Origin: Kiritimatiellia bacterium
GTDB taxonomy: Bacteria > Verrucomicrobiota > Kiritimatiellia > CAIKKV01 > CAITUY01
Reading direction: 5' to 3'
Assembly: GCA_038330175.1 (NCBI GenBank)
Contig: JBBQNS010000003.1
Location: forward strand, 283 to 64,282
Length of the DNA: 64,000 nt
Made by a program: the position numbers and the translations under genes. The first letter of the stretch is position 1. The number at the start of each line of letters is the position of its first letter. This document shows positions 2,976 through 18,055 of the stretch, piece after piece. Under the pieces are notes generated by a model. That model was not told the origin of the DNA and did not search any database. It saw only the letters and a program-made list of their open reading frames with translations.

Positions 2976-3000
2976 AAATATCCTTTCGTTTTCTTGAGGT

Positions 3001-3160
3001 CACGCCCAAAAGAGGGCGCGAACCCCAAGATGCATCTCAACCGAAGGGCTAGCACACCCTATTGTAGAAACACACAACAAGAAGCCGCGCCCATATGGAG
3101 GCGCGTTCCCGTCAGTGTCATCTCTACAATGCTAAAAAGTGCTAGTTCTCGGCTAAGATG
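3001..3160 (-). ncRNA. Candidate structured 5' leader (long nested hairpin) of the surface-protein gene
   Basis: Nested complementary pairs on + coordinates: 3033-3044/3149-3160 (G-U tolerated), 3049-3055/3139-3145, 3061-3068/3123-3130, inner 3086-3091/3100-3105; extra hairpin 3001-3020. Confidence 0.55.
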
Positions 3161-3227
3161 ATCTGCGCGTTAACGCATTAAAATCATTAAATTGTCCCTT
3201 CCACCATTACTGGCGGAATTGTTTTTC

Positions 3228-3255
3228 ACAATACATTCAATTTCATTTCTGTCAA
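3228..3255 (-). promoter_or_regulatory. Putative sigma70 promoter for the leader and surface-protein gene
   Basis: Minus strand TTGACA-N16-TATTGT in an AT-rich tract. Confidence 0.4.
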
Positions 3256-3404
3256 AGGGATTCACCATCTTGGAAAACCTGATTCTGCATCAGGGTTTTG
3301 CTGACAGAGCGATTGCTAAAAGAGTAACAGTTTAGCCCTTTATATTTGAGCCGAAATGGGAAGCGGCGATGAGAGTTGCCGTTTATGTTTGGGAGTTCAA
3401 CCGC

Positions 3405-3740
3405 TCACGAGGTATTGGGCGGGTTTCTGAAGAGAGCGGCTTGAGCGGTGGCGGTGTCTTGGGTGAAAAGGGTGTAGAAGAACTTGAGTTCCGACTTGCC
3501 TTGTCGTTGAGCGGTAACCATGAGGCTTGGTATGACGCCTTGAGAGAGGGAGCCTACAGGGGATCGAGTTCCAAAGGAAATCTTTCGCATGATGACCTGA
3601 GGTCGAAGCGACTGTTCTGCCTGGTTATTGGTGGGTTGGACTCCAGGGACAGTGAGGAAAGTAAAAAGGCGGCCATGGTCCTTGACCAGTATGCGGTTGC
3701 GGAGAGTTTCGGCCGCCTCATAGTCGAGTGGTTGTGGGGA
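3405..3740 (-). mobile_element. IS66-family transposase (TnpC) C-terminal remnant, 5'-truncated
   Basis: The start-less open frame upstream of ORF 3405..3590 reads ...HGRLFTFLTVPGVQPTNNQAEQSLRPQVIMRKISFGTRSPVG...IPSLMVTAQRQG, the characteristic IS66 PTNN.AE.SLRP.VI.RK.S.G.RS signature; the frame is closed by TAA at 3741-3743. Confidence 0.85.
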
Positions 3741-3800
3741 TTAGGGTCGTGGGGATTAGAGGGGGATTAGGGTCAGCCCTGGGGGATTAGGGTCAGCCCT
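3736..3800 (+). repeat. G-rich tandem repeat: four GGGGATTAG units, including an exact 20-bp duplication
   Basis: GGGGGATTAGGGTCAGCCCT at 3761-3780 and 3781-3800; partial units at 3736 and 3751. Confidence 0.9.
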
Positions 3801-4032
3801 TAAAAGTTAAAAGCGGTCTGTTTATGGGCTTTTATAACGACTTTTCAACGCGTTATGCGCCCGCCTCGCACAGCCCGAGCCATCATGCGGAACCCCGTCG
3901 TGCGCTGGGTGGACATCGCGCGCAAGCGACGGCCCTACGAAAGCCAATGATTACGAATGCGCAAGCGATGGCATCTACATTGAAAATACCGATGATCTCA
4001 GATGAACCCGCCCGATCCCCCTTTCCAATTTC

Positions 4033-4061
4033 TTGATTTCTTCATGGAAGTGGCGTAATGT
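4033..4061 (+). promoter_or_regulatory. Putative sigma70 promoter of the lipid cluster (near-leaderless)
   Basis: TTGATT-N17-TAATGT ending 10 nt before ATG 4072; no clear RBS. Confidence 0.4.
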
Positions 4062-4071
4062 GCAGGCCATT

Positions 4072-4809
4072 ATGGAAGCGCAACAACGATCTAAAATAGC
4101 ATTGGTAGTGGGGGGCAGCCGGGGTATCGGGCGTGCTATCGCCTTACGACTCGCCCGCTCGGGGTTCGACCTATGGGTAACCTACCTCGAAAACCAGGCG
4201 GCGGCCGAAGAAGTCAAAGCTGCCATTGAGTCGCTCGGCCGGTCCTGCGATCTGCTGAAATTCGATATCTCCGATTATGAGGCCTCCAAGGCTGCATTAT
4301 CAGAAAAAGCCGATCTCTGTGTGCCGGATGCGGTGGTCTTCAATGCCGGCATTGCTCGCGACAACCTCCTCGTATGGATGACCAAGGCGGAATGGGATAC
4401 CGTGATCCGTACGAACCTTGACGGGTTTTATAATGTCATTCACCCCGTGCTATTCCCCATGCTCCGCGAAAAGCGCGGCCGCATCGTGGTGATCTCCTCG
4501 ACATCGGGCCAGGTCGGACAGGCCGGCCAGGTGAATTATTCCGCGTCGAAAGCCGGCCTGATCGGAGCCGTCAAGGCGCTGGCCCGCGAAGTGGGGCGTA
4601 AGAATATCTTCGTGAATGTGGTGGCACCCGGTGTGATCGAGACCGAGATGGTGGCGCATTTGCCCAAGGAAAAAATTCTGCCACTGATCCCTGTAAACCG
4701 TTTCGGAAAAGTCGAAGATGTGGCATCCATTGTTGATTTCCTTTGTTCCGAACCGAACATGTATATCCACGGTCAAGTGATCGGGGTCAACGGCGGCCTG
4801 GCCATCTGA
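4072..4809 (+). CDS. fabG: 3-oxoacyl-ACP reductase (SDR, ApeQ/FabG-like)
   Basis: GGSRGIG Rossmann motif, NAG, YSASK catalytic motif, N.VAPG.IETEM; ATG 4072 preferred over TTG 4033. Confidence 0.92.
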   Translation: MEAQQRSKIALVVGGSRGIGRAIALRLARSGFDLWVTYLENQAAAEEVKAAIESLGRSCDLLKFDISDYEASKAALSEKADLCVPDAVVFNAGIARDNLLVWMTKAEWDTVIRTNLDGFYNVIHPVLFPMLREKRGRIVVISSTSGQVGQAGQVNYSASKAGLIGAVKALAREVGRKNIFVNVVAPGVIETEMVAHLPKEKILPLIPVNRFGKVEDVASIVDFLCSEPNMYIHGQVIGVNGGLAI

Positions 4810-4833
4810 ACCTAACCCGGCTTAGCCGGAACC

Positions 4834-4998
4834 AAGAGGAAGATTTTGAACAGAAGCACGCAAAGCACGCAAAGGCGGCTGCGGCGAGTACGCCGCAACC
4901 GCATTATTTTTGGAATTCAAACACCTGGCATTCTCGCCGAAGGCGTAAACATTCCCTCCTTTGCGGTCTTCGCGAGCTTTTGTTCAAACTCTTTTCTT
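4834..4998. repeat. Imperfect long inverted repeat (REP/MITE-like) between fabG and the oxidoreductase
   Basis: Left arm AAGAGGAAGATTTTGAACAGAAGCACGCAAAGCACGCAAAGG (4834-4875) pairs with CCTTTGCGGTCTTCGCGAGCTTTTGTTCAAACTCTTTTCTT (4958-4998). Confidence 0.7.
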
Positions 4999-5049
4999 GT
5001 CCAAATCATGACCATAATTCGATTGATTCAAGTCGTAAGGAACTAAATT

Positions 5050-6549
5050 ATGGAAAAATACGATCATATCGTTGTCGGTAGCGGAGCGAGCGGGCTGACC
5101 GCTACCCTGCTGCTGGCTTTGAATGGACGCCGGGTTTTGCTTTTGGAAAAAGCGCCCACCCTCGGCGGCTCGCTGGCCCGATTCCGCCGGCAAGGCGTGC
5201 CGTTTGATACGGGATTCCACTTCACCGGCGGCTTACTGCCGGACGCCCTTTTAAGCCGAATGCTGTCGGTCCTCGGACTCATGGATTCGGTTGAGCCGGA
5301 GTTCATGTCTCCCGACCGGGCTCACCAATTTATTTTCGAGGGGGAGAGTCGTCTTTTTGAAATGCCCTGCGGCATCAGCCGCATCCGACTCAAACTCAAG
5401 GATGAATTTCCGGGCGAGACCATGGCGGTGGACCGCTATTTCGACCTAGTGGAAAAAGTTTGTGCCCAAACAGCCTCGATGGACTTGGCGCGACTGGCTG
5501 AATCCGCCCATCGCCTGGACGAGGAATCCATCAGCCTGAAGGAGGTTCTGGACGGCCTCACTTCCAACGGGCTACTGCGAGGCATCCTGAGCGGATTATG
5601 TATGTGCTATGGGACCAAGCCGTCAGAAGTGTCCTTCGCCTCCCACAGCCGCATGTGTTACGACATGTATCAATCCACCGCCCGCTTCCGGCGCGGGGGC
5701 GATGCCCTGATCGATGCGTTTAAGAAGGCCATCCAATCATTGGATGTGGAAGTGCGCTGCAACCAGTGGATTGCCGAATGCCGGGTGGGCGACAATGACC
5801 AAGCCAGCAGTTTCATCATGAACGATGGCCGGGAGGTGGCGGCGGATTCAGCGGTTTTGACCATCCATCCCCAAGAGATTCTGAAACTCCTGCCCCGCAG
5901 CACTATCTCCAAGGCCTTCATCAGCCGGGTGGAGTCGTTTGAGCCCTCCTCCGGATTCTTTACCGTGTACGGCGTAATGGACGGTGAGACGGACCCCCAC
6001 TTCGGCGCCACGATCACCTCGTTGTTTCCAACAGATGATTTCGAGCAGCTTCTTGATCCGGCCTATCGCGGGGAGCAGGCGCTAGTCATTTGCGGCAGCG
6101 TGGAGCCGGTTCAAGGGGTTTCCCGCCGTGTCGTGACCGCTTTTGAGCCGTCCTTCCACGAACATGTAGCCGCGTGGGCAAACTCCTCGGTCAAACACCG
6201 CCCGGCCACCTATGAGGACTATAAGGCGGGGCGCGTGGAAGCCATTCGGAATCGGTTGCGTCGATATGATCCGGCCTTTAACGAGCGGCTCCGTATTCTG
6301 GATGCCGCTTCCATGCTGACCTTCCGGGATTATCTGCATTCGCCAGAAGGCTCCGCTTACGGCATCAAGCAGAAGGTCGGGCAGTATAACTTGATTGGAA
6401 AGCTTCCCGTCCGTAATCTCTTTGCGGCAGGACAAAGCGCGTTGCTGCCAGGAATTGCGGGAGCGATGATGTCGTCCTTCATTGTCATCCGGGCGGTTCT
6501 AGGCAAGGACAACTTTAATCGTTTTGTGAGTGGTAAATTATGCAGTTAA
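5050..6549 (+). CDS. FAD-dependent oxidoreductase, phytoene desaturase (CrtI)/retinol saturase family
   Basis: VVGSGASGL...LLEK...GG dinucleotide-binding motif, FDTGFH, C-terminal GSAYG...NLFAAGQS...PGIAG. Confidence 0.85.
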   Translation: MEKYDHIVVGSGASGLTATLLLALNGRRVLLLEKAPTLGGSLARFRRQGVPFDTGFHFTGGLLPDALLSRMLSVLGLMDSVEPEFMSPDRAHQFIFEGESRLFEMPCGISRIRLKLKDEFPGETMAVDRYFDLVEKVCAQTASMDLARLAESAHRLDEESISLKEVLDGLTSNGLLRGILSGLCMCYGTKPSEVSFASHSRMCYDMYQSTARFRRGGDALIDAFKKAIQSLDVEVRCNQWIAECRVGDNDQASSFIMNDGREVAADSAVLTIHPQEILKLLPRSTISKAFISRVESFEPSSGFFTVYGVMDGETDPHFGATITSLFPTDDFEQLLDPAYRGEQALVICGSVEPVQGVSRRVVTAFEPSFHEHVAAWANSSVKHRPATYEDYKAGRVEAIRNRLRRYDPAFNERLRILDAASMLTFRDYLHSPEGSAYGIKQKVGQYNLIGKLPVRNLFAAGQSALLPGIAGAMMSSFIVIRAVLGKDNFNRFVSGKLCS

Positions 6550-7769
6550 AACGTGTGGTCATTACAGGAATGGGAAGCGTTTCCCCTCTCGGGCGTGGGA
6601 TCCAAACCCTGACCGACGGCCTCAACACCGGTCGCAGCGCGGTCCGCAAAATGGAAGGTTGGGATCAGTATATCGGCTTGCGGAGTCTTGTCGGGGCACC
6701 GGCCGAACTGAAGGACGAACGGCTTATCCCGCGCCTGAGCCGTCGATCCATGGGACGCATGAGTATTTTTGCCGTTCAGGCGGCTCAGGACGCCGTCGCC
6801 GATGCCGCCCTTGATCCGGCACTGGCCACTTCAGGCCGAATGGGGTGCGTGGTAGGCTCCACCACCGGAAGCGCCATCAGCATCAGTCAGGCGTTCGAGA
6901 CCATGCTGCCGGATCACGATTTATCCAAGCTGTCCTCCATGCAGTTTTTCCACTGCATTTCCCATACGGCTACGATGAATGTGGCACAGGCTCTCAATCT
7001 CAACGGCTGGGTGATGGCGACTTCAGCGGCCTGTGCCTCGGCCATGCAAGGGATCGGCGCCGGCTACGACGTGATTCGACTGGGCCGTCAGGATGTCATG
7101 CTGTGCGGTGGCGCCGAAGAACTGCACCCCACTGTTACAGGCTCATTTGATGTCCTCTTCGCCACTTCAGTGAAATACAATCAGACCCCTTCCCTTACGC
7201 CGCGTCCGTTCGACCGCGACCGGGACGGCCTAGTTTGCGGAGAAGGTGCCGGGATTCTGATTTTGGAAGACTATGACCACGCCGTGAAACGGGGCGCCCG
7301 GATCTATGCTGAAATTCTGGGTTATCATACCTGCAGCAGCGGCAATCATGTCAGCGAATCCAGCCGCACCGCCATGGTGACGTGTATGCGGGAGGCTCTG
7401 CAGGCGGCAGACGTACAGCCCCATCAGGTGGATTACGTTAATGCACATGCCACGGCGACCTTGCAGGGCGACAAGGAAGAGGCGGAGGCCATCATCGAAG
7501 TGTTTGGATCCAAGGTTCCGGTCAGCAGTTTCAAGGGTCATCTGGGCCATACCCTGGGTGCCTCGGCGGCCATCGAGTTGAGCGCTTCCCTGGCCGGCAT
7601 GCGGCAGGGTCTGCTCTTTCCGACCCTGAATCTGGACAACATCAGTCCCGAGTGTCAGGGTATCGCCCACATCATGGGGCAGACCTTGAAAAAGGACGCC
7701 CGTATCGTCGTGAAAAACAGTTTTGCCTTTGGCGGTATCAGCGCGGTGCTGGTCTGCCGGATGATGTAA
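6540..7769 (+). CDS. fabF: Beta-ketoacyl-ACP synthase (FabF/ApeO-R-like) with intact Cys-His-His triad
   Basis: RVVITGMG, TSAACAS (catalytic Cys), PRPFDRDRDG, NAHATAT, KGHLGHTLGA, NSFAFGG. Confidence 0.9.
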   Translation: MQLKRVVITGMGSVSPLGRGIQTLTDGLNTGRSAVRKMEGWDQYIGLRSLVGAPAELKDERLIPRLSRRSMGRMSIFAVQAAQDAVADAALDPALATSGRMGCVVGSTTGSAISISQAFETMLPDHDLSKLSSMQFFHCISHTATMNVAQALNLNGWVMATSAACASAMQGIGAGYDVIRLGRQDVMLCGGAEELHPTVTGSFDVLFATSVKYNQTPSLTPRPFDRDRDGLVCGEGAGILILEDYDHAVKRGARIYAEILGYHTCSSGNHVSESSRTAMVTCMREALQAADVQPHQVDYVNAHATATLQGDKEEAEAIIEVFGSKVPVSSFKGHLGHTLGASAAIELSASLAGMRQGLLFPTLNLDNISPECQGIAHIMGQTLKKDARIVVKNSFAFGGISAVLVCRMM

Positions 7770-7791
7770 AGAAAAGTTTTAAGAGGTAAAT

Positions 7792-8058
7792 ATGACTAAA
7801 GAAGAAATCGTCGCATTGACTAATAAGGTTTTTGAGGATTCTTTTGAAATCGAGCCTGCGCGACTGACCCCCCAGGCGACCATTTTTGATGAGCTTGGCC
7901 TAGACAGCCTGGATATCGTGGACTTGATCGTGGCGTTGCAGAAGCAGTTCAAGGTTCAAATCCGCGAAGACGAACGCGTTCGCACCATTCGCACGCTGGA
8001 GGATGTCTACAACTTCATTCTGATGCTGAAGCAAGAGGACGAGAAGAAGGGGCAGTAA
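7792..8058 (+). CDS. acpP: Acyl carrier protein
   Basis: 88 aa, acidic, LGLDSLD phosphopantetheine site; RBS GAGG. Confidence 0.92.
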   Translation: MTKEEIVALTNKVFEDSFEIEPARLTPQATIFDELGLDSLDIVDLIVALQKQFKVQIREDERVRTIRTLEDVYNFILMLKQEDEKKGQ

Positions 8059-8073
8059 TTTACATGTTGTGAG

Positions 8074-8264
8074 GCTCTTGCAAAACCTCGTTTTGCAAGA
8101 GCAGAATCCAGAAGTCAGGAGTCAGAATTCTTTCATCATCTGTGTATTGCATTATTCTGGCTTCTGAATGCTGAATTCCCTCTTGTATGTTGTGACGTGA
8201 TTACTCAAGCTGAATTGTGGAATTTCATGCCCGAAACCCGAAACCCAAAACGCGAAACGCGAAA
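8074..8264. repeat. Composite intergenic repeats: 13-bp perfect palindrome, inverted heptamer tracts and a 5x heptamer tandem
   Basis: GCTCTTGCAAAAC-CTC-GTTTTGCAAGAGC (8074-8102); CAGAATC/CAGAAGT/CAGGAGT/CAGAATT (8102-8129) mirrored by ATTCTGG CTTCTGA ATGCTGA ATTC (8154-8178); CCCGAAA CCCGAAA CCCAAAA CGCGAAA CGCGAAA (8230-8264). Confidence 0.8.
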
Positions 8265-9090
8265 CCGTTGCCCGAACATACCTTTTCGAGCAACGCCTAG
8301 CTACCCTAAGCCCACCGCCTTGGGACGGCGCTTGCTCAAGCGCCTCGAGTGGGTTTGGCTCAACCTCTCTTTCTATTTTCTGCTGGTTCTGTTTTCGTTG
8401 CTCGCGGTTCCCGGGTTCTCGCTTTTTATCGCCGTTCAAACGCCTTTCATTTCGCACCGCCAGGCGATGCGGTTATTCCGCCGCTCTATCCGCTGGTACG
8501 GCTATGTCGTAATCTACATTTTGCCCTTTCCGTTGGTTCGAGTTCGGTATGAGAATCGATCGCAGGGGAAGCTGCCCAATCCCTGCATTGTGATATGCAA
8601 TCATCGCTCCTCCGCCGATCCTTTCCTGATGGGCGCCATTCCGCTTGAGGAAGCGGTTCAGATTGTGAACAAATGGCCCTTTAAATTACCGCTCTGGGGG
8701 CCTATGGCACGCTGGGCCGGATATCTGAGCATCAATGAAATGCCGGTCGAAGAATTTTTCAGTCGGGGCACAGCCCTGATGAAGAGCGGAGCCTCACTGA
8801 TTGCGTTTCCGGAAGGAACCCGTTCACGGACGATGGAGTTGGGGCCGTTTCACGGGACTCTCTTCAGGCTGGCCCTGGAAACCAAGATTCCTGTTGTTCC
8901 CATATGCATCCTGGGAAGTGAACAGGTGCCGCCGCGGGGAACAATGGTTCTGAAACCAGGTCTGGTGTTAGTGCGGAGTCTGCCGCCAGTGACATGGGAG
9001 GTCTATAAGAACCTCTCGCCGTTCCAATTTAAAACCCAGGTGCGGGACATGATCGCCCGAGAGCTCGTGAACATGGAGAGGGACGCATGA
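8197..9090 (+). CDS. Lysophospholipid/glycerol-phosphate acyltransferase (PlsC/ApeD-like); true start probably downstream of the heptamer repeats
   Basis: NHRSSADP (HX4D) and FPEGTRS motifs, N-terminal TM segment; stop overlaps next ATG (ATGA). Confidence 0.88.
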   Translation: MITQAELWNFMPETRNPKRETRNRCPNIPFRATPSYPKPTALGRRLLKRLEWVWLNLSFYFLLVLFSLLAVPGFSLFIAVQTPFISHRQAMRLFRRSIRWYGYVVIYILPFPLVRVRYENRSQGKLPNPCIVICNHRSSADPFLMGAIPLEEAVQIVNKWPFKLPLWGPMARWAGYLSINEMPVEEFFSRGTALMKSGASLIAFPEGTRSRTMELGPFHGTLFRLALETKIPVVPICILGSEQVPPRGTMVLKPGLVLVRSLPPVTWEVYKNLSPFQFKTQVRDMIARELVNMERDA

Positions 9091-10391
9091 AAGCCTTTAA
9101 GGGAGATCCGACACTTGAATTTGCGGAGCCAGCCATCGTCAGAGCAGCACAAGCCGAGCGGTTGCGCCGCCATGTAGCGTGGTGTGCCCGTAAGTCGCCC
9201 TATTACCGCCGCCTGTTCCGAGATTCGGGCATTAAACACAAGTGGGTCAGCCTGGAAACCCTCGCTCAGTTCCCCACCACGAGTAAATCAGACCTAGCCC
9301 GGTACAATGACGAGTTCCTCGCCGTCGCCCCTTCAGAAATTGTCGATATCGTGCTATCCTCCGGCACCACCGGCAAGCCGGTTCGGATCCTTTACACCGA
9401 ACGCGATCTCACGCGGCTGGCCCACAACGAACAACTCTCGTTTGCCGGCTGCGGTATCACCACCGGAGATGTGGCCCTGCTGACATGCACGATGGACCGT
9501 TGCTTCATTGCCGGCTTGGCTTACTTCCTGGGAATCCGGGCACTCGGAGCCGCGGCCATCCGCAACGGACACGGGACGCTGGCCAGTCATTTGGAGATCA
9601 TCAAAACCATCCGCCCGTCCGTATTGGTGGGGGTGCCGTCGTTCCTCCGCAAATTGGCAGTCTATATGAAGGACCACGGAATCGACGCCTCCCAGACCTC
9701 CGTTCGCAAACTCGTCTGCATTGGCGAACCGGTACGCGGGGCCGACATGGCGCTGCTAAAATTAGGAAGCGACCTTCAGGCATTCTGGAAGGCCGACGTG
9801 TACTCCACCTACGCCTCCTCTGAATGCATCTCGACCTTCTGCGAATGCACTGCCCAGCAGGGCGGGCACCTGCATCCCGATCTGGCTATTGTTGAAATCC
9901 TGAACGACAGGGGAGATGCGGCCGCTCCAGGCCAGTCTGGGGAAGTGGTGCTGACCCCCCTTGACATGGAGGGAATGCCGCTGATCCGCTTCCGAACGGG
10001 GGATGTGAGTTTCCTGATGACGGAGCCCTGCTCATGTGGGCGCACCTCGCCCCGACTGGGACCGATTATCGGTCGGAAACAACAGATGATGAAGGTTCGC
10101 GGCACCACCTTGTATCCGCAAGCCGTCTTCGCGGCGCTGGATGAACTCCCGACGTTGGGCGATTATTATCTGGAAATTGTTGAAAAAGAAAACCTCTCTG
10201 ACGACCTGATCATCCATCTCGCCGCCCGGGCGGGTCAGCCGTCGCCCGACTGGCTCCGCGCACACCTTCAAGCCTGTCTGCGAGTGACCCCCGTCATCGT
10301 CATTGACCCCGAAGACAAAGTTCGGCAACATTTATATTCACCTGAATCACGGAAGCCCGTGCGGGTATGGGATCGGAGAAAAAACACGTGA
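9087..10391 (+). CDS. Phenylacetate-CoA ligase (PaaK)-like adenylating enzyme
   Basis: SSGTTGKP P-loop, YASSE, PLIRFRTGD, RKQQMMKVRGTTLYP. Confidence 0.85.
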   Translation: MKAFKGDPTLEFAEPAIVRAAQAERLRRHVAWCARKSPYYRRLFRDSGIKHKWVSLETLAQFPTTSKSDLARYNDEFLAVAPSEIVDIVLSSGTTGKPVRILYTERDLTRLAHNEQLSFAGCGITTGDVALLTCTMDRCFIAGLAYFLGIRALGAAAIRNGHGTLASHLEIIKTIRPSVLVGVPSFLRKLAVYMKDHGIDASQTSVRKLVCIGEPVRGADMALLKLGSDLQAFWKADVYSTYASSECISTFCECTAQQGGHLHPDLAIVEILNDRGDAAAPGQSGEVVLTPLDMEGMPLIRFRTGDVSFLMTEPCSCGRTSPRLGPIIGRKQQMMKVRGTTLYPQAVFAALDELPTLGDYYLEIVEKENLSDDLIIHLAARAGQPSPDWLRAHLQACLRVTPVIVIDPEDKVRQHLYSPESRKPVRVWDRRKNT

Positions 10392-11872
10392 GCTGTCACA
10401 ACCTCATGATCGGGTCGGAGTTTGACAAAGCCGATATCGATTTCGCTGCTAAAAACGGACGGTTGCTCTCGATAGAAATCGAGTTTGGCCTCCAATGCAA
10501 TTTTCGGTGCCAGTACTGCTATGTCGGGAATACCGACACCACCATCAATACGCTCTCCCCGGATGAAATTCGGCGCGTCATTGTAGAAGCCAAGGATCTA
10601 GGCGCGCGTAAGATCATTGCGCTGGGTGGCGAACCCATGATCTATCCCAACTTTCTGGGAATGCTGCAATTTATGCGCGACTTGGGGCTTTCCGTCGAAG
10701 TATTCACTAACGGTACCAATATGACCCCGGAATCGGCAAAGCGTCTTTATGATCTAGGCGTTCAGGTCGTCCTCAAAATGAACAGTTTCTCGGAAATCAT
10801 CCAAGATGAACTCGCAGGGGTCAAGGGAGCCTACCAGATCATCCAGGAGGCTTACCGGAACCTGACCGCCGCGGGTTTCCCGTCGGAAGGACATCCCTTG
10901 GCGGTCAGTACGATTATCTGCAACCAAAACCTGTCGGAGATTGTGCCGATGTGGCAATGGTTAAGGGACCGGAAGATCACCCCCTATTTCGAAATCATGA
11001 CTCCGCAGGGAAACGCGCAGGACAACCAGCATCTGGATGTTGAACTCCCGCGTCTCAAATCACTTTTCACCGAGCTCGCCGAGCTGGATCATGCCCGGTA
11101 TGGTTACCGGTGGGAGCCCCAGCCGCCCTTGGTGGGAGATCGCTGCCTCCGCCACCAATTCTCATGTCTGGTCAATGCGACGGGGAACGTCATGCCGTGT
11201 GTTGGGGTTACCATTCCCGTTGGCAATGTCAGGGAGCATGCTTTGGCCGATATTCTTCGCGACAGCGAAGTGATTGGCGATCTGCGGCACTACACTAAAA
11301 CCATCCACGGCCCCTGCGCGGCCTGTGAGAAAGCCGAATCTTGTTACGGTTGCCGTGGAGCGGCCTATCAATCAACGGGTGATTACCTGGCCTCTGACCC
11401 CCTGTGCTGGAGGAATGAGGGACACGAAGCAGAGATCATGAAACTCCCCTCCGCCATCGGGCACATGATTCCCCAGCAGGCCCCGATGCGCCTGGTTGAT
11501 CGCCTGATCTCCGTGGGAGAGCGGGTGGCTGTCGTCGAAACCACCCTGCGGCCAGACAACCCTTTTGTGGATGACGAGGGGACGCTGGATACGGCAGCCT
11601 ATCTGGAACTCATTGCCCAGGCCGCGGCCACGATGAACGGATTCAGAACCTCCTTCCGCGAAGGGCATGACCCTCAGGGGTATTTGCTGGGAGCCCGCCA
11701 GATGGAAACGTTTGGAATCGCCCGCGTAGGTGATACCCTTTCCATTCATGTGTTCAAGGCGACCCGATTTGGGGATTTCGGGATTATTGAAGGTCGGGTT
11801 TCCTGCGGCAAAACGCTTCTGGCTCGAGGCGAGATTAAGGTCTGGCATCAAGCCTCCGAGATAAAAGAATGA
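10388..11872 (+). CDS. Radical SAM/SPASM protein fused to a C-terminal hotdog-fold 3-hydroxyacyl-ACP dehydratase (ApeP/FabZ-like)
   Basis: CNFRCQYC (10496-10519), GGEP, SPASM Cys array (CLRHQFSC...MPC...CAACEKAESCYGCR...DPLCW), then IPQQAPMRLVDRL...ELIAQAAA...GYLLGAR; GTG 10388 overlaps the PaaK stop (GTGA). Confidence 0.88.
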   Translation: MSCHNLMIGSEFDKADIDFAAKNGRLLSIEIEFGLQCNFRCQYCYVGNTDTTINTLSPDEIRRVIVEAKDLGARKIIALGGEPMIYPNFLGMLQFMRDLGLSVEVFTNGTNMTPESAKRLYDLGVQVVLKMNSFSEIIQDELAGVKGAYQIIQEAYRNLTAAGFPSEGHPLAVSTIICNQNLSEIVPMWQWLRDRKITPYFEIMTPQGNAQDNQHLDVELPRLKSLFTELAELDHARYGYRWEPQPPLVGDRCLRHQFSCLVNATGNVMPCVGVTIPVGNVREHALADILRDSEVIGDLRHYTKTIHGPCAACEKAESCYGCRGAAYQSTGDYLASDPLCWRNEGHEAEIMKLPSAIGHMIPQQAPMRLVDRLISVGERVAVVETTLRPDNPFVDDEGTLDTAAYLELIAQAAATMNGFRTSFREGHDPQGYLLGARQMETFGIARVGDTLSIHVFKATRFGDFGIIEGRVSCGKTLLARGEIKVWHQASEIKE

Positions 11873-12525
11873 ACCTGTTCATGCCCACAAACTGTGTCCG
11901 CGGCGTGGTGAGTGCTGGATGCCTCGCATTGATGGCGGCATCTGCGGTGGCGACGCCTGCCCTTTTTGACGAACTACAGAAAAGCCTTGCCGGTACAACC
12001 AATGTCCAGAGCGGGTTCATTCAAGAGAAGACTCTCACCCTGCTGCAGCAAACGGTGGTGATCCGGGGACGACTAGCAGTCGAACAACCGGATCGCCTGG
12101 CGTGGTACGTTGAGGAGCCTATCCGATACAATATGATCTTGGACGGCTCCACGTTAAAACAGTGGGACGCGGCCACCGGTAAGGTGCAAACGATGTCAAT
12201 GGCAGGGAATCCCGTCTTCAAGGTGGTTGTCACTCAACTCCGCGCTTGGTTCTCAGGCCGGCTCGATTTGTTAACTCAGGATTTCGACTCCGAGGCCGAT
12301 ACCGCTTTAGGGCGCGCCCAAATCACTTTTATCCCGAAAAGCGGAAGCTTCGCCTTCAAGGTGATTAAGCGGGTGGTCCTGACGTTCCGCGAGGACCGAC
12401 GTTATATTCAGGATATGTTGATCGAAGAACAATCGGGCGATCGCACGACCATGACCTTCACCAATACGATCCTCAATGCCGCTATTCCTGCGGCAACCTG
12501 GGAGGTTAAGCCGCATGGCCGGTAG
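11869..12525 (+). CDS. LolA-like periplasmic lipid/lipoprotein carrier (ApeL-like)
   Basis: Signal peptide; FIQEKTL...G.L....PDRLAW.VEEP..Y.MILDG pattern. Confidence 0.8.
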   Translation: MNLFMPTNCVRGVVSAGCLALMAASAVATPALFDELQKSLAGTTNVQSGFIQEKTLTLLQQTVVIRGRLAVEQPDRLAWYVEEPIRYNMILDGSTLKQWDAATGKVQTMSMAGNPVFKVVVTQLRAWFSGRLDLLTQDFDSEADTALGRAQITFIPKSGSFAFKVIKRVVLTFREDRRYIQDMLIEEQSGDRTTMTFTNTILNAAIPAATWEVKPHGR

Positions 12526-14896
12526 CCATTTCCTTCGCACCTTTACCTGGCTTGAAAATCACCGCAACCTGGCCATTGGCCTGTTGCTCACCCTTCTCGT
12601 AGTGGCGGGCTTAAGCCTCGTCCGAGTCCGATTTGACAACACACTGGATCTGATGCTGCCGGTAGGCAGTCCCGCCCAACGGATGATGTCTTTTTTGCGC
12701 GAAGCCAATTTCTCCAATAAAATTGTAATTTCACTAGAGGCGCTGGACACAGACGAAGCGCGTGGTCGGCTTCTGGCGGCAGCGGATGGTTTGGCGGCTG
12801 CCCTTCCCTCCCCGCTGATCACAAAAGTTACAACCGGCTTTTCCACACCCGACCTCATGAATGATGCCGGCTTTTTCCTGAAACACGCGCCGCAGATTCT
12901 AACCTCTAACGACTTGGCCGGCATCGATGCAGAGCTAACAACGACCGGAATCAGCGGCGTCGTGCAACGCTTGTACTACCAGCTCCTGAAACCCGAGGGC
13001 ATGTTCATGGCCCAGTCCATCCGGACGGATCCGCTGGCCATCAACCAGATGATTCTGGCCCAAATGTCCAAGCTATCCACCAGCATGGGTTATGATGTAA
13101 CCATGGAAAACGGACATTTCATCAGCCGAGATGGCCGCCATACCATGCTCTTGCTTGAAACGACGGTGCCCCTCACGGATGCCGATGGAGCCCGCATGTT
13201 GCTCGCGTACCTAAACCAGAAACTCGCTACGTTGCCGGCCGGCATCACCGCCTCACTGATATGCGGCCATACTCATGTCGTCAGCAACGAAGATACCATT
13301 AAGCGCGATCTCGGGGTGGTGCTGACGTTGGCCTCGCTCGCCTTCGTTATCCTGTATGTTGGTTTTTTCCGGGACACCCGGGCGCTGTTGATTTTCATTA
13401 TTCCGGCCTTGGCCGCCTTAGTCGCACTGGCCATCACCGCCTTGTTTTTCCCACGCCTCTCTTATTTTGTTATTGCCTTTGGGCCGGTGATTGCGGGAAT
13501 TGCCGATGACTACGGAATCGCCGTTTATGTTGCGATTCGGCATGGCTCGAACCGGGCCGAATCTGTGAAGCACGTCTTGGCGCCCGTCACTGCAGGCGCC
13601 GTGACCACCACGGGAATTTTCTTCGCCTTTTTCTTCTCCCGCATCCCCGGTTACTACCAACTGGCCTGGTTCTGCATTCTCAGCATTCTCCTGACCCTTG
13701 CCCTCGCCCTCTGGATCCTGCCGCTGTTCCTGCGGCCCGGCCTGACGCCGGAAGAACATGACGCAACCCCATCCTTTATCCCACCGAAACGCCCCAAACT
13801 CTATCTTGCTGGTTTTGCCGTTCTCTTTGTTCTAGCGGTGGCCTGTGCGACTCGGGTCCGGTTTGACAATGATGTGACGCGCCTTGATGGAGCCGCGCCC
13901 TCGATTCTCAAAGCGGAAGAGGAGTTCAAAACGGTTTGGGGTACCGGCGAGAAAAAAGAGGCTATCCTAGCCGTCATGGGGGATAGCTATGAAAATGTCC
14001 GAGAGAAGACCGACGCCGCCTACGAAGAGGCGATCGCAGCCGTCGGCCCCTCGCAATTTGTAAGCTTGTCCTCCGTCTGGCCGTCCGGGAAGACCCGCGC
14101 TGCACGGGCTTCTGCGTGGACAAATTTTTGGAAGGCAGGCCGGGAGGAACACCTCAGGAAATTGTTGGCTATACAAGGGAAAGCCTGCGGGTTTGCCACC
14201 AACGCTTTTGATCCCTTCTTTGCAAATCTGTATGACGGCACCGTGCTAACCGATGAGCCCGTTTCAAACCGGGTCCTCATCAGCCTGAAAGATCGCTTTG
14301 TCCAAACTCCCAACGGGCGGTATCAAACGCTGTCCTATTTTCCAGACAACCCGGAAATGGTAGCTTCACTGAGCCGGGTTTTAGGAAACCGGTCAGACGC
14401 CTCCATCATCTCCCGAACCGAATTGGGAAACATTCTCTCAACCGCGTTTACCGGAGAAGTGGTGCGCACGTCACTGCTGGCCGGACTGATGATCCTCCTG
14501 ACCGCCTGGCTATTCATTCACAATCTGCCTCTGACACTGGTAGCCCTGTCGCCCGCATTTGCTGCCGTCATCGGACTTTTAGCCATCATGGGAGTGATGG
14601 GACGCCCGCTCAACGTGGCTAACTTGATTTCGGGAATTGTGGTTTTCGGACTCAGTATTGATTTCGGGATGCACATCCTGCATTCCTGCCGTCATCCACA
14701 AGGCGTACACGCCCGAATGGCGGTTACCTTTGCCGCGATGACGACGGTCATGGGGGCGGCGGTATTGCTATTTGCGCGGCATCCTGCGCTTTATTCCATT
14801 GGATTGACTTTATCGATTGGTGTGACCTTAGGTTATTTTGCCGCCATGTGGATGGTACCGGCATTATATGAGGTGGTTGGCAGGAGGCAGGAATGA
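12515..14896 (+). CDS. MMPL/RND-family lipid exporter (ApeM-like)
   Basis: Two blocks of TM helices separated by large loops; GIADDYGI and GLSIDFG motifs; RBS GGAGG at 12501-12505 supports ATG 12515. Confidence 0.85.
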   Translation: MAGSHFLRTFTWLENHRNLAIGLLLTLLVVAGLSLVRVRFDNTLDLMLPVGSPAQRMMSFLREANFSNKIVISLEALDTDEARGRLLAAADGLAAALPSPLITKVTTGFSTPDLMNDAGFFLKHAPQILTSNDLAGIDAELTTTGISGVVQRLYYQLLKPEGMFMAQSIRTDPLAINQMILAQMSKLSTSMGYDVTMENGHFISRDGRHTMLLLETTVPLTDADGARMLLAYLNQKLATLPAGITASLICGHTHVVSNEDTIKRDLGVVLTLASLAFVILYVGFFRDTRALLIFIIPALAALVALAITALFFPRLSYFVIAFGPVIAGIADDYGIAVYVAIRHGSNRAESVKHVLAPVTAGAVTTTGIFFAFFFSRIPGYYQLAWFCILSILLTLALALWILPLFLRPGLTPEEHDATPSFIPPKRPKLYLAGFAVLFVLAVACATRVRFDNDVTRLDGAAPSILKAEEEFKTVWGTGEKKEAILAVMGDSYENVREKTDAAYEEAIAAVGPSQFVSLSSVWPSGKTRAARASAWTNFWKAGREEHLRKLLAIQGKACGFATNAFDPFFANLYDGTVLTDEPVSNRVLISLKDRFVQTPNGRYQTLSYFPDNPEMVASLSRVLGNRSDASIISRTELGNILSTAFTGEVVRTSLLAGLMILLTAWLFIHNLPLTLVALSPAFAAVIGLLAIMGVMGRPLNVANLISGIVVFGLSIDFGMHILHSCRHPQGVHARMAVTFAAMTTVMGAAVLLFARHPALYSIGLTLSIGVTLGYFAAMWMVPALYEVVGRRQE

Positions 14897-15561
14897 AACG
14901 GCTAACGCTCATTACCGCCGCTTCGCTCCTGCTCCTCTGCTCCTGCCGAACGCTGCCCCCGGTGGAACCGGGTGAAGCGGCTAAGGTGTCGGCAACGGCC
15001 GATGCCGCTTTGCCGCAATCGTTCAAGGCTCAACAGGTTTTGATGTTTGAGTTTAAACCCCATTGGTGGTGGCCAACCATCCACATGACCGCGCTCGGCT
15101 ATGCCACGGTGAATCGCAAGACCGGTGATTACGCCGTAGTGTGCCTGACCCCGGTGGGCGTTAAACTATTTGAAGCAAAACGTCTTGCAGGAGTCACCAC
15201 GGTCACTGTAGCTTTACCCATCAAACACGACAAAGAGGCGATGGAACGTGCGATCGGAGAAGACATTGAGAGCATGTACTTTGGCCTGACCCCGCCCGAA
15301 AATGCAGATTGGAGAAAGGACCGCCGCGAGCTTAGCGCCACCAGCGGCGATGGGGCCAAGCGCGAAGAGTGGCATTTTGCCGCTGACACGGGCCGACTCT
15401 CCCGAAAAGAGGTGCAGTCCTCGGATGGCACGAGAACCATCCTGTTTAGCGATTACAAACTTTTGCTTGGTGGCGCCTATCCGGCATTGATCAGTATCAA
15501 AAATAACCGTTTTCGTTACACCCTATCGGTACAACAGAGCTTAGTTAGCGTCAGTAAATAG
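14893..15561 (+). CDS. Lipoprotein, DUF3261/ApeN-like
   Basis: Lipobox LLCSC; VVCLTPVGVKLFE motif; position after MMPL as in aryl-polyene clusters. Confidence 0.65.
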   Translation: MKRLTLITAASLLLLCSCRTLPPVEPGEAAKVSATADAALPQSFKAQQVLMFEFKPHWWWPTIHMTALGYATVNRKTGDYAVVCLTPVGVKLFEAKRLAGVTTVTVALPIKHDKEAMERAIGEDIESMYFGLTPPENADWRKDRRELSATSGDGAKREEWHFAADTGRLSRKEVQSSDGTRTILFSDYKLLLGGAYPALISIKNNRFRYTLSVQQSLVSVSK

Positions 15562-15581
15562 CATGCGCAAAACCCAAAGTC

Positions 15582-15651
15582 ACCCACCCCTAGCCCCTCC
15601 AAGGAGGGGATCTCAGTCTGGTTCCCCTCCCTGGAGGGGCTAGGGGTGGGT
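15582..15651. repeat. 29-bp inverted repeat (1 mismatch), REP-like, each arm itself a hairpin
   Basis: ACCCACCCCTAGCCCCTCCAAGGAGGGGA (15582-15610) and TCCCCTCCCTGGAGGGGCTAGGGGTGGGT (15623-15651). Confidence 0.85.
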
Positions 15652-15702
15652 TCTTGTGTATGGCCCGATATGATCTTATTATTAGAGAGGAAGGTAGGTT
15701 TT

Positions 15703-16581
15703 ATGACTTGGTTGAAATTATTTATGTTGGGGGCTGTCCTGGTTTGTTCGAGTTGCGCCACGGTCCCGTACCATTACGGCAAAGCCTCCGACTATGTGCG
15801 CAACCCACACGCGGTTGTCGACAAAGAGCCACAAGTGACCTATGGCACCCCGCATGGGTTTCTGGATGCCAGCGGCTGGATCTGGCCCGGCAGCTTATTT
15901 GGCAAGCTCATCCTATGGAATTACAAAGTGGATAGCCATCGCATCTCCACCCAGACAGTCGCCGCTGTTCAACAGTTTTTGGCGGACAACGAACTACAAG
16001 ATGTCAAAGTTCGTATTAATGATTATTGCGTAGGAGCGGAGTTTCGCCGCACAATTCACAATAAAGCGGTAGCGCCCGGATGGCGTTACACGTTTGGAAT
16101 TTTCTCCTGGTTAGGATACACCATCATGCCAGGTCGGTTTTTTGGTGGCGATAACTACAATCCCTATTCGAACACCATCAATCTGTATTCCGACCTGAAA
16201 CCTATCGGTTTACACGAATCGGGTCATTCCAAGGACTTTGCCCAGCGTACCTACAAGGGGACCTATGCGTTTTTCTATACCATTGTGCCCGGATTCAACC
16301 TCTATCCAGAAGCCAAAGCGTCGACTGAAGCGTTGAGCTACTTGCGCGCCAAAGGCGATGTAGATGAAAGCAAAGCGGCTTACAAGCTATTGTACCCAGC
16401 CTATGCGACCTATATCGGGGGCACCGCTGGCTCCCGTCTAGCCCAGCCGTGGATCTATTTGGTGGAAGCAGGGGTCGTTATTCCGGCCCACATCGTAGGA
16501 CGGATCAAGGCCGCCCGTGTTCCCGATAATTTGGAGCCCCAACCCTTGTTAACCCACGCGTCAGTAAATCTCTCGCCCTAA
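15703..16581 (+). CDS. Lipoprotein of unknown function with an HExxH (HESGH) motif
   Basis: Lipobox VCSSC after a hydrophobic stretch; LHESGHSKD and a downstream E (YPEAKAS); purine-rich RBS before ATG 15703. Confidence 0.7.
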   Translation: MTWLKLFMLGAVLVCSSCATVPYHYGKASDYVRNPHAVVDKEPQVTYGTPHGFLDASGWIWPGSLFGKLILWNYKVDSHRISTQTVAAVQQFLADNELQDVKVRINDYCVGAEFRRTIHNKAVAPGWRYTFGIFSWLGYTIMPGRFFGGDNYNPYSNTINLYSDLKPIGLHESGHSKDFAQRTYKGTYAFFYTIVPGFNLYPEAKASTEALSYLRAKGDVDESKAAYKLLYPAYATYIGGTAGSRLAQPWIYLVEAGVVIPAHIVGRIKAARVPDNLEPQPLLTHASVNLSP

Positions 16582-16703
16582 CCTAAACTGCTTTGAAACA
16601 CTAGACGCCTGTTTTCTGTGTTTGTTCCGGCTTCGAATTTCCAACAACACAATATCACACAGGTACTGACAGCTTTAAATTTTTGTGTTATCAGAGCTGT
16701 TTT

Positions 16704-17480
16704 ATGAGGTCTATTCTAACCATTGCGCTTATTTTATTACCGTTTTCGGCGGTCATTTCCGAAGCTAACACGGATGCTGTGGCGCGGGCTGAAGCCCAAG
16801 TATTGTTGGAATCCCTTTCCCAACAATTTTCCGGAATCCACACTTTGTCGTATACGGTTGAACGGACAACTCAAGGGCGCCGCCAAGCCTCAAAGGAGCG
16901 CTGGAGTTTCACTTATGCAACCCCTGGTTTTGTGCGGGTGGACTACCAATATCCTACTGAGCGTCACCTCATCCTGACCCCCAACTCCCTATATGAGTAT
17001 ATTCCGGCGCTACGTAAGGCGCTTCACACTGACCTAACAAAGATGACCGACACAGCACGACAAGCTACCATCAAACAAACCCTTACACGGATTTCCCTGG
17101 ATGGAATTAATCCCACCAAGTTTCAAGAGATGGTTCCCCGAACAACCTCCGTTACGATCATCGCCCCAACGTCGAGTATTTACCGCATTACAGGGAAGAA
17201 TCCTAAATTTTTGCTTGAACTTGACCAACAGCGAAAGGTTTTGCTGACGACCGACATCTATACACCAGCCAACGATCTCCTGCTCCATTGCGAGGCGTCT
17301 AAATTTATCGAAGCAAGCCCTGGGTTCTGGTATCCCCAGCAGTTAGACGCCCGTTACTTAACCGAACAAGGCTTTGTTTCCACCACCACCCTTATTCGTG
17401 ACATTGCCATTAATGCGCCTCTTACTAATACCCTATTTCAATTCACGCTGCCCGCCCACGCCTCTATAGAGACACGGTAA
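16704..17480 (+). CDS. Second LolA-like outer-membrane lipoprotein carrier
   Basis: Signal peptide; F.YATPGFVRVDYQYP...LILT...LYEY; ends FQFTLPAHA, typical of LolA-fold C-termini. Confidence 0.7.
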   Translation: MRSILTIALILLPFSAVISEANTDAVARAEAQVLLESLSQQFSGIHTLSYTVERTTQGRRQASKERWSFTYATPGFVRVDYQYPTERHLILTPNSLYEYIPALRKALHTDLTKMTDTARQATIKQTLTRISLDGINPTKFQEMVPRTTSVTIIAPTSSIYRITGKNPKFLLELDQQRKVLLTTDIYTPANDLLLHCEASKFIEASPGFWYPQQLDARYLTEQGFVSTTTLIRDIAINAPLTNTLFQFTLPAHASIETR

Positions 17481-17648
17481 ATTTAAAAGTATGTGAAAAA
17501 AACAAATTGCATCCTTGACGTTTTCTGGAGGGACGCAATAATGAGTGCGGTTATAATAAATTGAGCTTATGTCCCAGCCAAAGTTGTTGAACATGAAGCC
17601 GATTAAAAAAACGCAAATAAAAAAGGTAAAGGCAGGAGAATTCCAAAT

Positions 17649-17927
17649 ATGAAGAAAATTATTGGTGGTTTGTTAATTGGGATGGTGTTGATGGGTGCAG
17701 TTCCTTCTGCAAAGGCAGCTGATGCGGGCGGCGCAGCCATTCTGTCTGCTGTGCTTCCTGGCTGTGGCGAGTGGTATAACCGCGGATGGCAAGGCGGATT
17801 CCCATGGGCCGAATGTGTTGTCGGGCATGTTTGCTGTCTTTTCCAGCTAAGTTCCGTCATGGATGCCGTGAACGGCAATACGGATGAAGGGTTGCGTCTT
17901 GATTTCTGGTCAGCCCCTACAAAATAA
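17649..17927 (+). CDS. Small secreted/membrane protein (92 aa), Cys/Trp-rich
   Basis: RBS AGGAG, signal peptide ending AKA-A, motif AAILSAVLPGCGEWY, followed by a strong terminator. Confidence 0.75.
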   Translation: MKKIIGGLLIGMVLMGAVPSAKAADAGGAAILSAVLPGCGEWYNRGWQGGFPWAECVVGHVCCLFQLSSVMDAVNGNTDEGLRLDFWSAPTK

Positions 17928-17942
17928 AGCATTTTATGCATT

Positions 17943-17979
17943 AAAAAAGGAGGCCGGGAATTCCTCGGCCTCCTTTTTT
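17943..17979. terminator. Bidirectional intrinsic terminator
   Basis: AAAAAAGGAGGCCG-N9-CGGCCTCCTTTTTT, 14-bp perfect stem between convergent genes. Confidence 0.9.
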
Positions 17980-18055
17980 ATTTCTCAAGTAATCATTATT
18001 TTAAAACACTGGTATCCTGCAGAACGCCAGTGTTTTAAACTTATAACTCAGCCCC

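Follow-up and report, generated by a model that had tools for sequence, protein, structure and literature searches.

Aryl polyene (APE) biosynthetic gene clusters (BGCs), described from E. coli CFT073, Xenorhabdus doucetiae and Acinetobacter baumannii (ApeA-R), encode an ApeR-type beta-ketoacyl-acyl carrier protein (ACP) synthase (KS), an ApeQ-type 3-oxoacyl-ACP reductase (KR), a dehydratase split into ApeI and ApeP, two ACPs, an adenylating ligase, acyltransferases (ATs), a glycosyltransferase, a 4HBT thioesterase and a trio of LolA, MMPL and DUF3261 proteins, and lack an enoyl reductase. We used these clusters as the source of comparison for a ten-gene operon at positions 4072-15561 of a 64,000-nucleotide stretch of DNA from a Kiritimatiellia bacterium (contig JBBQNS010000003.1; the whole stretch is referred to as the window). 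The Kiritimatiellia genome shares all of these features with APE clusters. Unlike in APE clusters, however, the pathway is distributed over two loci and includes a flavoprotein of the CrtI fold, a SPASM-type radical S-adenosylmethionine (SAM) enzyme fused to ApeP and, at the second locus, two B12-binding proteins of the radical SAM type, whereas an ApeB-type SAM methyltransferase was seen in neither locus and an evident source of 4-hydroxybenzoate or coumarate was not found in the genome. The first-pass annotation of the window had proposed both the APE architecture and the status of the flavoprotein and the SPASM enzyme as extras to the canonical APE set, and both proposals held: the KS, the KR and the hotdog domain of the fusion have ApeR, ApeQ and ApeP, respectively, as their best PDB matches, and the export trio is present. 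Most probably, the operon represents the first half of a split pathway of the aryl-polyene family, a type II system similar to polyketide synthases (PKSs) and fatty acid synthases (FASs) in which an outer-membrane lipid or pigment is assembled, tailored and exported, and it belongs to the cluster type of Kuenenia kuste3335-3352 and Desulfotalea DP185x.

The latter clusters, those of Kuenenia stuttgartiensis (kuste3335-3352) and Desulfotalea psychrophila (DP1853-1860), were described as candidate ladderane or novel polyunsaturated fatty acid (PUFA) clusters (PMC2649909). Their SPASM radical SAM proteins, Kuste3343 and DP1855, are orthologous to that of the window, and they also have in common with the Kiritimatiellia genome a B12-radical SAM gene of the TIGR04072 family and, in synteny, genes for a PaaK-like ligase, FabG/FabF-like enzymes, a phytoene-dehydrogenase-like flavoprotein and an Mmp-like membrane protein. 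However, Kuste3343 is an unfused protein of 350 aa, whereas the radical SAM protein is fused to ApeP here and in most relatives, and the host here, unlike Kuenenia, is a non-anammox bacterium of the Planctomycetes-Verrucomicrobia-Chlamydiae (PVC) group. The synteny of the SAM-radical, phytoene-dehydrogenase-like, 'phenylacetyl-CoA ligase' and Mmp-like genes between Kuenenia, Desulfotalea, Geobacter and Pelobacter was reported by Rattray in 2009 (PMC2649909), and a survey of 2023 recorded antiSMASH 'ladderane' BGCs, with no function assigned, in Verrucomicrobiota, Omnitrophota, Desulfobacterota and other phyla (PMC9902471). Clearly, the cluster is not of a new type. Our literature searches found no characterised product for this cluster type, and no syntenic match to a characterised cluster of known product was found.

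Flexirubin clusters (flxA-flxY of Chitinophaga pinensis and Flavobacterium johnsoniae; PMC3992019) are alike in their type II logic, with an acyltransferase, a LolA protein and an exporter. Flexirubin models were the best or near-best NCBIfam matches of three window proteins, but in each case the cut-off was missed: FlxY scored 457 bits against 520 for the ligase, FlxB 285 bits against 340 for the KR, and LolA2 90 bits against 125 for the LolA-like protein. The tyrosine ammonia-lyase FlxA, which supplies 4-coumarate in the flexirubin pathway, was not found in the Kiritimatiellia genome, and neither a SPASM radical SAM gene nor a CrtI-like gene is mentioned for flexirubin clusters in PMC3992019.

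A conserved ten-gene operon and its predicted chain-building enzymes

All ten genes, which the first-pass annotation had described as co-oriented and mostly overlapping, were found as intact open reading frames (ORFs) arranged head to tail on the + strand, with the same coordinates as before. They overlap by 4-10 nt at five of their junctions and by 50 nt at one, which is the pattern expected of a translationally coupled operon. The flavoprotein and KS genes overlap by 10 nt and the LolA-like and MMPL genes by 50 nt, while an overlap of 4 nt occurs at each of the AT/ligase, ligase/radical SAM (GTG at 10388), radical SAM/LolA and MMPL/last gene junctions; the KS and ACP genes are separated by 22 nt. 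Two junctions are wide, that between the KR and flavoprotein genes (4810-5049) and that between the ACP and AT genes (8059 to ~8330). Both are occupied by small dispersed repeats, and related loci do not have these repeats at the two junctions.

The ten genes are kept in the same order in a metagenome-assembled genome (MAG) of another PVC bacterium (L002, 67-90% identity), in a Lentisphaerae MAG (L005, 24-56%), in an Omnitrophota MAG (L009, 27-75%), in a Desulfobacterales contig (L012) and in a Nitrospirae MAG (L013). With this order shared by five phylum-level lineages, the arrangement is far beyond chance. Within its own phylum, the cluster was found in 22 of the 201 genomes, and it is absent from two same-genus genomes, indicating that it is an accessory trait. 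Horizontal transfer was considered on the basis of GC content and rejected: the cluster (55.7%, as compared with 53.1 +/- 2.0% for the genome) ranks among the top 11% of windows, which is no anomaly. Two partial arrangements were also observed. One MAG (ELA529) has only the genes from the ligase to DUF3261, with unrelated genes upstream, and in a Pseudomonadota MAG the radical SAM protein is unfused (60% identical), with MMPL and KS genes close by on the opposite strand.

Pfam and NCBIfam profile searches of the window proteins supported every domain that had been named beforehand, with two caveats: the last gene product has no Pfam match of its own, and the dehydratase is a weak ApeP-like domain. 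The first gene (4072-4809; ATG at 4072, with the longest ORF starting from a TTG at 4033) encodes a KR of predicted ApeQ/FlxB type. It matched Pfam adh_short_C2 with an E-value of 5.5e-51 and, among NCBIfam models, FabG NF004200 with 294 bits, followed by FlxB. Its best PDB matches, 6NRP and 7CAW (230 bits, as compared with at most 196 bits for other reductases), are both A. baumannii ApeQ (PMC8041823), which identifies it as ApeQ-type by best structural-database match. Similarly, the predicted FabB-like KS (6540-7769) matched PRK09116 with 441 bits and has an intact Cys-His-His triad; it is ApeR-type by its best PDB matches, 4EWG (335 bits) and 7F27 (324 bits), as FabB structures reached at most 244 bits and FabF structures at most 223 bits. 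Of these, 4EWG is the Paraburkholderia ApeR, and an A. baumannii ApeR structure has been described as well (PMC8358021). The residues reported to line the ApeR cavity are Arg64, Arg68, Ala163, Cys164, Phe202, Leu229, His268, Leu336 and Phe394 (PMC8358021). All nine are identical in the window KS and in six orthologues from five lineages, while the aryl-stacking Tyr135 of ApeR is replaced in all of them by an invariant Phe.

The next two genes would provide the carrier and one route of attachment. The dedicated ACP (7792-8058) has the DSL serine motif, matched Pfam PP-binding (E 7.5e-11) and NCBIfam PRK05350 (63.6 bits against a cut-off of 65), and is 66% identical to its Omnitrophota orthologue. 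The AT, a lysophospholipid-type member of the PlsC family with an N-terminal membrane segment, matched Pfam Acyltransferase (E 1e-21) and contains the PlsC-family motifs HX4D (NHRSSAD) and FPEGTRS. Its longest ORF extends from 8197 to 9090, but its homologues are 249-250 aa long, which points to a TTG at ~8320-8332 as the probable start.

The last three genes encode the predicted export trio. The LolA-like periplasmic lipid carrier of ApeL/LolA2 type (11869-12525) matched Pfam LolA with an E-value of 5e-13, its NCBIfam match being the LolA2_flexi model, and the position of its gene is unchanged in all related loci. The MMPL/RND-superfamily inner-membrane exporter of ApeM type (12476-14896) matched Pfam MMPL weakly (E 1.8e-4; 21.0 bits against a gathering score of 20.5), but matched the HpnN-like model of NCBIfam with an E-value of 7.5e-22, as well as HAE3, and is 38% identical to its Omnitrophota orthologue over 757 aa. 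The last protein (14893-15561) has a signal peptide with a Cys, indicating a lipoprotein. Taken alone, this protein had no Pfam match and does not justify its first designation as DUF3261-like, but its homologues do: five of the six that were aligned matched DUF3261 (PF11659; best E 1.2e-5), and faint matches to this family had been precomputed for the loci of three other phyla. We therefore regard it as a divergent, ApeN-like DUF3261 lipoprotein.

These assignments bear on whether the genes could instead belong to a housekeeping FAS II or to one that makes unsaturated fatty acids anaerobically. In favour of that, no KS reaching the FabF cut-off, no FabD and no AcpP-like gene was found in the assembly. 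However, same-genus genomes that do not have the cluster do carry FabD, indicating that the fab operon is probably missing, as unassembled or unbinned sequence, from this 205-contig, 95%-complete MAG. Moreover, a true FabZ is encoded on contig C44, the cluster is patchy in its distribution, the export trio is typical of secondary lipids, and the nearest relatives of the KS and KR are ApeR and ApeQ, not FabF, FabB or FabG. Taken together, these observations make a housekeeping role very unlikely. The most FabF-like KS of the genome (351 bits against a cut-off of 494) lies outside any fab operon, on contig C12, in a group of genes (C12:43985-50721; L014 1985-8722) that also encodes an LpxC-like protein, a 557-aa B12-binding radical SAM protein and a FadL/TodX outer-membrane channel.

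The radical SAM-ApeP fusion and the CrtI-fold flavoprotein

The gene at 10388-11872 (with an alternative ATG at 10367) encodes a radical SAM/SPASM enzyme fused to a predicted ApeP-type hotdog half-dehydratase. Radical_SAM and SPASM were both matched in Pfam, the CX3CX2C motif and eight invariant Cys residues of the SPASM region are present, and the ApeP-like domain was matched weakly (E 7e-4 when scanned alone). Over its full length (residues 19-351 aligned with 13-346), the radical SAM part is 44% identical to Kuste3343 (E 5e-105), whose sequence was taken from S6 Table of PMC4790861. The C-terminal domain matched chain B of 6QSR, the ApeP of an ApeI:ApeP heterocomplex, with an E-value of 5.4e-10, and a fold search gave a TMt of 0.79 for the same pair. 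An AF2 model of the whole protein was confident as a single body (pLDDT 89.4, pTM 0.87).

The fusion is frequent in the family. All 120 best matches in a collection of 5.8 billion proteins have the radical SAM-SPASM-ApeP architecture. A search of 1.84 billion representatives gave 260 family members at E <= 1e-30, among which proteins of ~490 aa with the fusion occur alongside unfused ones of ~350 aa; about half of the top 150 are fused to ApeP. In one 727-aa database protein (P0066), the radical SAM-ApeP protein is further fused to LolA. Fusion of a dehydratase half to another enzyme has a precedent in APE clusters, namely the ApeH-ApeI protein of A. baumannii, which joins ligase and dehydratase half; ApeI and ApeP have been described as a heterodimer with a single active site (PMC8041823). 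In the hotdog domain of the window protein and of the 120 fused homologues, the Glu of the LELIAQ motif is invariant and there is no conserved His. In contrast, an ApeI-like protein encoded on another contig of the same genome, C61, has the FabZ-type histidine motif FQGHFPG. A Glu-only ApeP domain together with a His-bearing ApeI-like protein matches the description of a one-active-site heterodimer. Judged by these motifs, the window dehydratase is incomplete alone and its partner half is encoded on C61. Thus, the 'dehydratase' reported at first in the radical SAM protein is indeed there as an ApeP-type domain, but it is only one half of a two-protein enzyme.

A SPASM enzyme might also mature a ribosomally synthesised and post-translationally modified peptide (RiPP), its place in a lipid operon being incidental. 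The solved folds closest to it are indeed those of the peptide maturases SkfB, SuiB, PqqE and CteB. However, only ~35 residues precede the radical SAM core, too few for an N-terminal peptide-recognition domain, and no conserved small ORF was seen. Additionally, the in-frame fusion to ApeP and the place of the gene between those for the ligase and LolA, fixed in five phyla, both tie the enzyme to the lipid genes, and we consider a role in peptide maturation highly improbable. All neighbours in the fold search were of the generic SPASM/twitch kind and give no indication of the reaction.

The flavoprotein (5050-6549) is FAD-dependent by family, with Pfam matches to Amino_oxidase and NAD_binding_8. 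It failed the carotenoid-specific NCBIfam models by a wide margin, scoring 53 bits against 238 for crtI_fam (TIGR02734) and 91 bits against 550 for CrtD. Its AF2 model (pLDDT 88.6, pTM 0.90) was nevertheless closest to gamma-carotenoid desaturase 4REP (TM 0.75), plant phytoene desaturase (PDS) 5MOG and CrtI 4DGK. As it fails the crtI_fam model and has these neighbours by modelled fold, it is CrtI-like at the level of the predicted fold only. Orthologues of ~500 aa with at least 50% identity occur in Nitrospirae, Omnitrophica, Desulfobacterales and Hydrogenedentes, whereas the identity to Kuste3336 and Kuste3607 is 23-25% over 300-350 aa.

The second half of the pathway, the repeats and the flanking genes

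In the Omnitrophota, Desulfobacterales and Nitrospirae loci, the DUF3261 gene is directly followed by genes for an ApeI-like dehydratase, a 4HBT thioesterase (not in the gene list of the Omnitrophota locus) and a second KS, with which the Desulfobacterales and Nitrospirae loci end. Next in the Omnitrophota locus and the contig of P0100 come a gene for a ~181-aa protein, genes for a B12-binding protein and a B12-radical SAM enzyme, and one for a GT2-DUF2062 glycosyltransferase; the Omnitrophota locus additionally encodes an LpxL-like acyltransferase. In the Kiritimatiellia genome, the corresponding genes lie outside the window, on C61 (from ~16900 to its end), and continue on C128. Together, these contigs encode the ApeI-like dehydratase half, a thioesterase, three more KS-type proteins, one of them similar to chain-length factors (CLF-like), B12-radical SAM proteins, a glycosyltransferase and an LpxL-like acyltransferase; C128 also has genes for MipA, a second ACP and a KS (PRK09185, 288 bits) adjoining the CLF-like Ketoacyl-synt_2 gene, the latter two being a candidate counterpart of the KS:CLF heterodimer ApeO:ApeC of APE clusters. 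The product of a B12-radical SAM gene located at the end of C61 and the start of C128 passes TIGR04072 (rSAM_ladder_B12) with 509.6 bits against a cut-off of 360. Clearly, the ten genes are not a self-contained pathway, since the partner dehydratase, the thioesterase, further KS-type proteins, the second ACP and the B12-radical SAM enzymes are all encoded on C61 and C128.

The split of the locus is probably real and not an artefact of assembly, as in a complete chromosome of the same class (G197) the two marker genes are ~5 Mb apart. In support of a connection between the halves, TIGR04072 was matched in 17 of 22 genomes with the radical SAM-ApeP gene and in none of eight without it. Lentisphaerae versions of the cluster have no B12-radical SAM genes, and these genes are therefore accessory, whereas the SPASM enzyme and the flavoprotein are core. 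Gene integrity, motifs, homology and collinearity across phyla are direct observations, and so are the second locus and the fact that the two halves co-occur.

The B12-radical SAM gene, the phytoene-desaturase-like gene and the orthology of the SPASM enzyme to Kuste3343 could be taken to mean that the cluster makes ladderane lipids, with their concatenated cyclobutanes, as in anammox bacteria, and the resemblance to gene sets proposed for ladderanes that was pointed out initially is borne out by the identity to Kuste3343 and by the passing of TIGR04072. Anammox Cluster I (Kuste3603-3608: amxACP, amxFabZ, amxFabF2/FabFmut, PDH, B12-rSAM) also consists of similar types of parts, namely an ACP, a hotdog dehydratase, a KS with a CLF-like partner, a phytoene-dehydrogenase-like flavoprotein and a radical SAM enzyme. 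However, Cluster I was reported as unique to ladderane producers, its radical SAM enzyme is B12-dependent and not of the SPASM type, and it has no ligase, LolA, MMPL or DUF3261 genes (PMC4790861; bioRxiv 10.64898/2026.05.19.726425). Current work favours this anammox-restricted set, with a B12-radical SAM enzyme and an amxFabF heterodimer, for ladderane synthesis (bioRxiv 10.64898/2026.05.19.726425). In contrast, the cluster type considered here is present in many non-anammox phyla (PMC9902471), its carrier Desulfotalea was found to have no ladderanes (PMC2649909), and the Lentisphaerae versions do entirely without B12-radical SAM genes. That the cluster makes ladderanes is thus extremely doubtful.

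The two wide junctions of the operon are occupied by different repeats. The copy at 4810-5049, a ~237-bp element resembling miniature inverted-repeat transposable elements or repetitive extragenic palindromes (MITE/REP-like) and given no strand, lies between the KR and flavoprotein genes. In the related PVC locus L002, this insert is absent and the flavoprotein start directly adjoins the KR stop. The repeat had more than 100 blastn matches in its own genome, on dozens of contigs and many of them at contig ends, and its near-full copies are 80-97% identical. It contains a terminator-like hairpin and, after it, a U-run (a 12-bp GC stem followed by AUUAUUUUU), with a fold energy of -22.4 kcal/mol (z -2.7). 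The repeat may have a connection with the split of the operon, and it may attenuate transcription. A further copy is found directly upstream of the second half-cluster (C61:15218-15447). The spacer between the ACP and AT genes holds, at 8068-8178, a ~110-nt dispersed repeat with about ten near-full-length copies (at least 110 nt) of 81-94% identity, and also a short tandem run of the (CGAAAC) kind at ~8233-8270. Just past the last gene, at 15570-15658, there is a palindromic element of ~90 nt with copies on several contigs.

The flanks of the operon added no further members. Two downstream ORFs, at 15646-16581 and 16683-17480, were considered and rejected: they are not conserved beside the cluster in relative L001, whose sequence reaches far enough downstream to judge this, and have no solid family match. 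The first encodes a probable lipoprotein of 311 aa with a metalloprotease-like HESGH (HExxH) motif, and the second a secreted protein of 265 aa with a weak LolA_like match (E 0.0065). The two ORFs upstream of the operon (3369-4036) had neither a family match nor relatives. An Rfam scan of 2900-18000 detected no RNA families, and scans for promoters and terminators did not perform better than shuffled controls. Directly upstream of the second half-cluster (C61:10040-15215; L010 1041-6215) are genes for two glycyl-radical enzymes (708 and 729 aa) and an activase. The two enzymes were considered as suppliers of the starter and rejected, as they matched only a generic PFL2-3 subfamily and showed no link to the pathway.

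The starter acid, the predicted route and its significance

The ligase gene (9087-10391) encodes an adenylate-forming enzyme, the presumed loader of the starter acid. It matched FlxY with 456.6 bits (E 7e-137) and PaaK with 184 bits, has the SSGTTGKP P-loop, and its PDB matches are phenylacetate-CoA ligases (4R1L, 160 bits; 2Y27, 132 bits). FlxY is the characterised 4-coumarate-CoA ligase of the flexirubin pathway (PMC3992019), and APE clusters carry the ligase ApeH (PMC8041823). A ligase of this kind is therefore not the departure from known pathways that it was first thought to be; moreover, a 'phenylacetyl-CoA ligase' was already part of the synteny described in 2009 (PMC2649909).

The starter is the weakest point of the aryl-polyene-family assignment, as the ligase and the KS look adapted to aryl substrates, but neither an aromatic ammonia-lyase (tyrosine, histidine or phenylalanine type; PF00221), for which control genomes gave matches, nor a UbiC-type chorismate lyase was found in the 95%-complete genome. 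With both absent, the genome has neither of the two established routes to the aryl starters of APEs and flexirubins, and the starter could be non-aromatic. The same machinery could then load an aliphatic or other acid and give a polyunsaturated, radically modified acyl lipid. Such a starter would also fit with the ligase score, which stays under the FlxY cut-off, and with Desulfotalea, in which polyunsaturated hydrocarbons were seen and no aryl polyene was reported (PMC2649909). On the other hand, the best models for the ligase are all of aryl-acid ligases, and the KS keeps the aromatic character of the ApeR cavity, with Phe202 retained and Tyr135 changed only to Phe. Aromatic acids can, moreover, be scavenged in anoxic habitats. 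We regard a non-aromatic starter as possible, but on balance unlikely.

Several further points weigh against the assignment of the ten genes to an aryl-polyene-family pathway as a whole. The scores of the ligase, the KR and the LolA-like protein are all under the curated flexirubin cut-offs; the flavoprotein is only 14-15% identical to solved carotenoid desaturases; and the nearest characterised relatives of the radical SAM enzyme (AhbD, NirJ, PqqE, SkfB and SuiB) act on tetrapyrroles or peptides, not on acyl-ACPs. The repeat with its terminator-like hairpin separates the KR gene from the remaining operon. Finally, the product itself is not readable from the sequence.

With these reservations, the split aryl-polyene-family pathway would work as follows, its substrate, the order of its reactions and its product being predicted, like each step from priming by the ligase to radical tailoring, from homology. 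The FlxY/PaaK-like ligase would activate a carboxylic acid starter, most likely an aromatic acid that is scavenged or comes from fermentation, and prime the dedicated ACP with it. The ApeR-type KS, together with the KS-type proteins of the second locus, including the CLF-like one, would extend the chain with malonyl units, and the ApeQ-type KR would reduce each beta-keto group. Dehydration would be performed by a heterodimer, to which the ApeP domain of the window protein would contribute the Glu and the ApeI-type protein of C61 the His of FQGHFPG. An enoyl reductase is encoded in neither locus, so the chain would remain conjugated and unsaturated. As its covalent tie to the dehydratase half suggests, the SPASM domain may act on the ACP-bound enoyl or polyenoyl intermediate and, by C-H abstraction, form C-C bonds, dehydrogenate the chain or alter it in a similar way. 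The CrtI-fold flavoprotein could desaturate, saturate or isomerise the chain in a two-electron reaction, and the B12-radical SAM enzymes of the second locus could introduce further changes, probably C-methylation. The PlsC-type and LpxL-like acyltransferases and the GT2 glycosyltransferase would then attach the chain to a lipid anchor, and the LolA-like, MMPL and DUF3261 proteins would carry the product to the outer membrane.

A bolder version of the tailoring step can also be put forward, although we think it improbable. The radical SAM-ApeP protein could be an in-line, dehydratase-coupled radical module, in which the tethered SPASM domain, after each formation of an enoyl- or polyenoyl-ACP at the ApeI:ApeP site, would remove a hydrogen and create C-C bonds and so, aided by the CrtI-fold enzyme, cyclise or cross-link the chain. 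Many anaerobic phyla would then make as yet unseen carbocyclic outer-membrane lipids, chemically akin to the first steps of ladderane synthesis.

Taken together, the ten genes are a real and well-conserved operon, and one more member, although only half, of a cluster type that is already on record; what a specialist would not have expected here is only the split arrangement and the insertion of repeats. As the window holds half of the pathway and the partner of its dehydratase is encoded elsewhere, expression work must include both loci. Few orphan lipid gene sets of anaerobes are as rigidly conserved as operons of this type, which join a polyene assembly line with radical SAM chemistry that probably takes place on a fatty chain bound to a carrier protein. 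Identification of the product would add a new reaction type. Additionally, it would settle what the non-anammox matches to 'ladderane' BGCs encode, and which of the Kuenenia genes are not specific to ladderanes.

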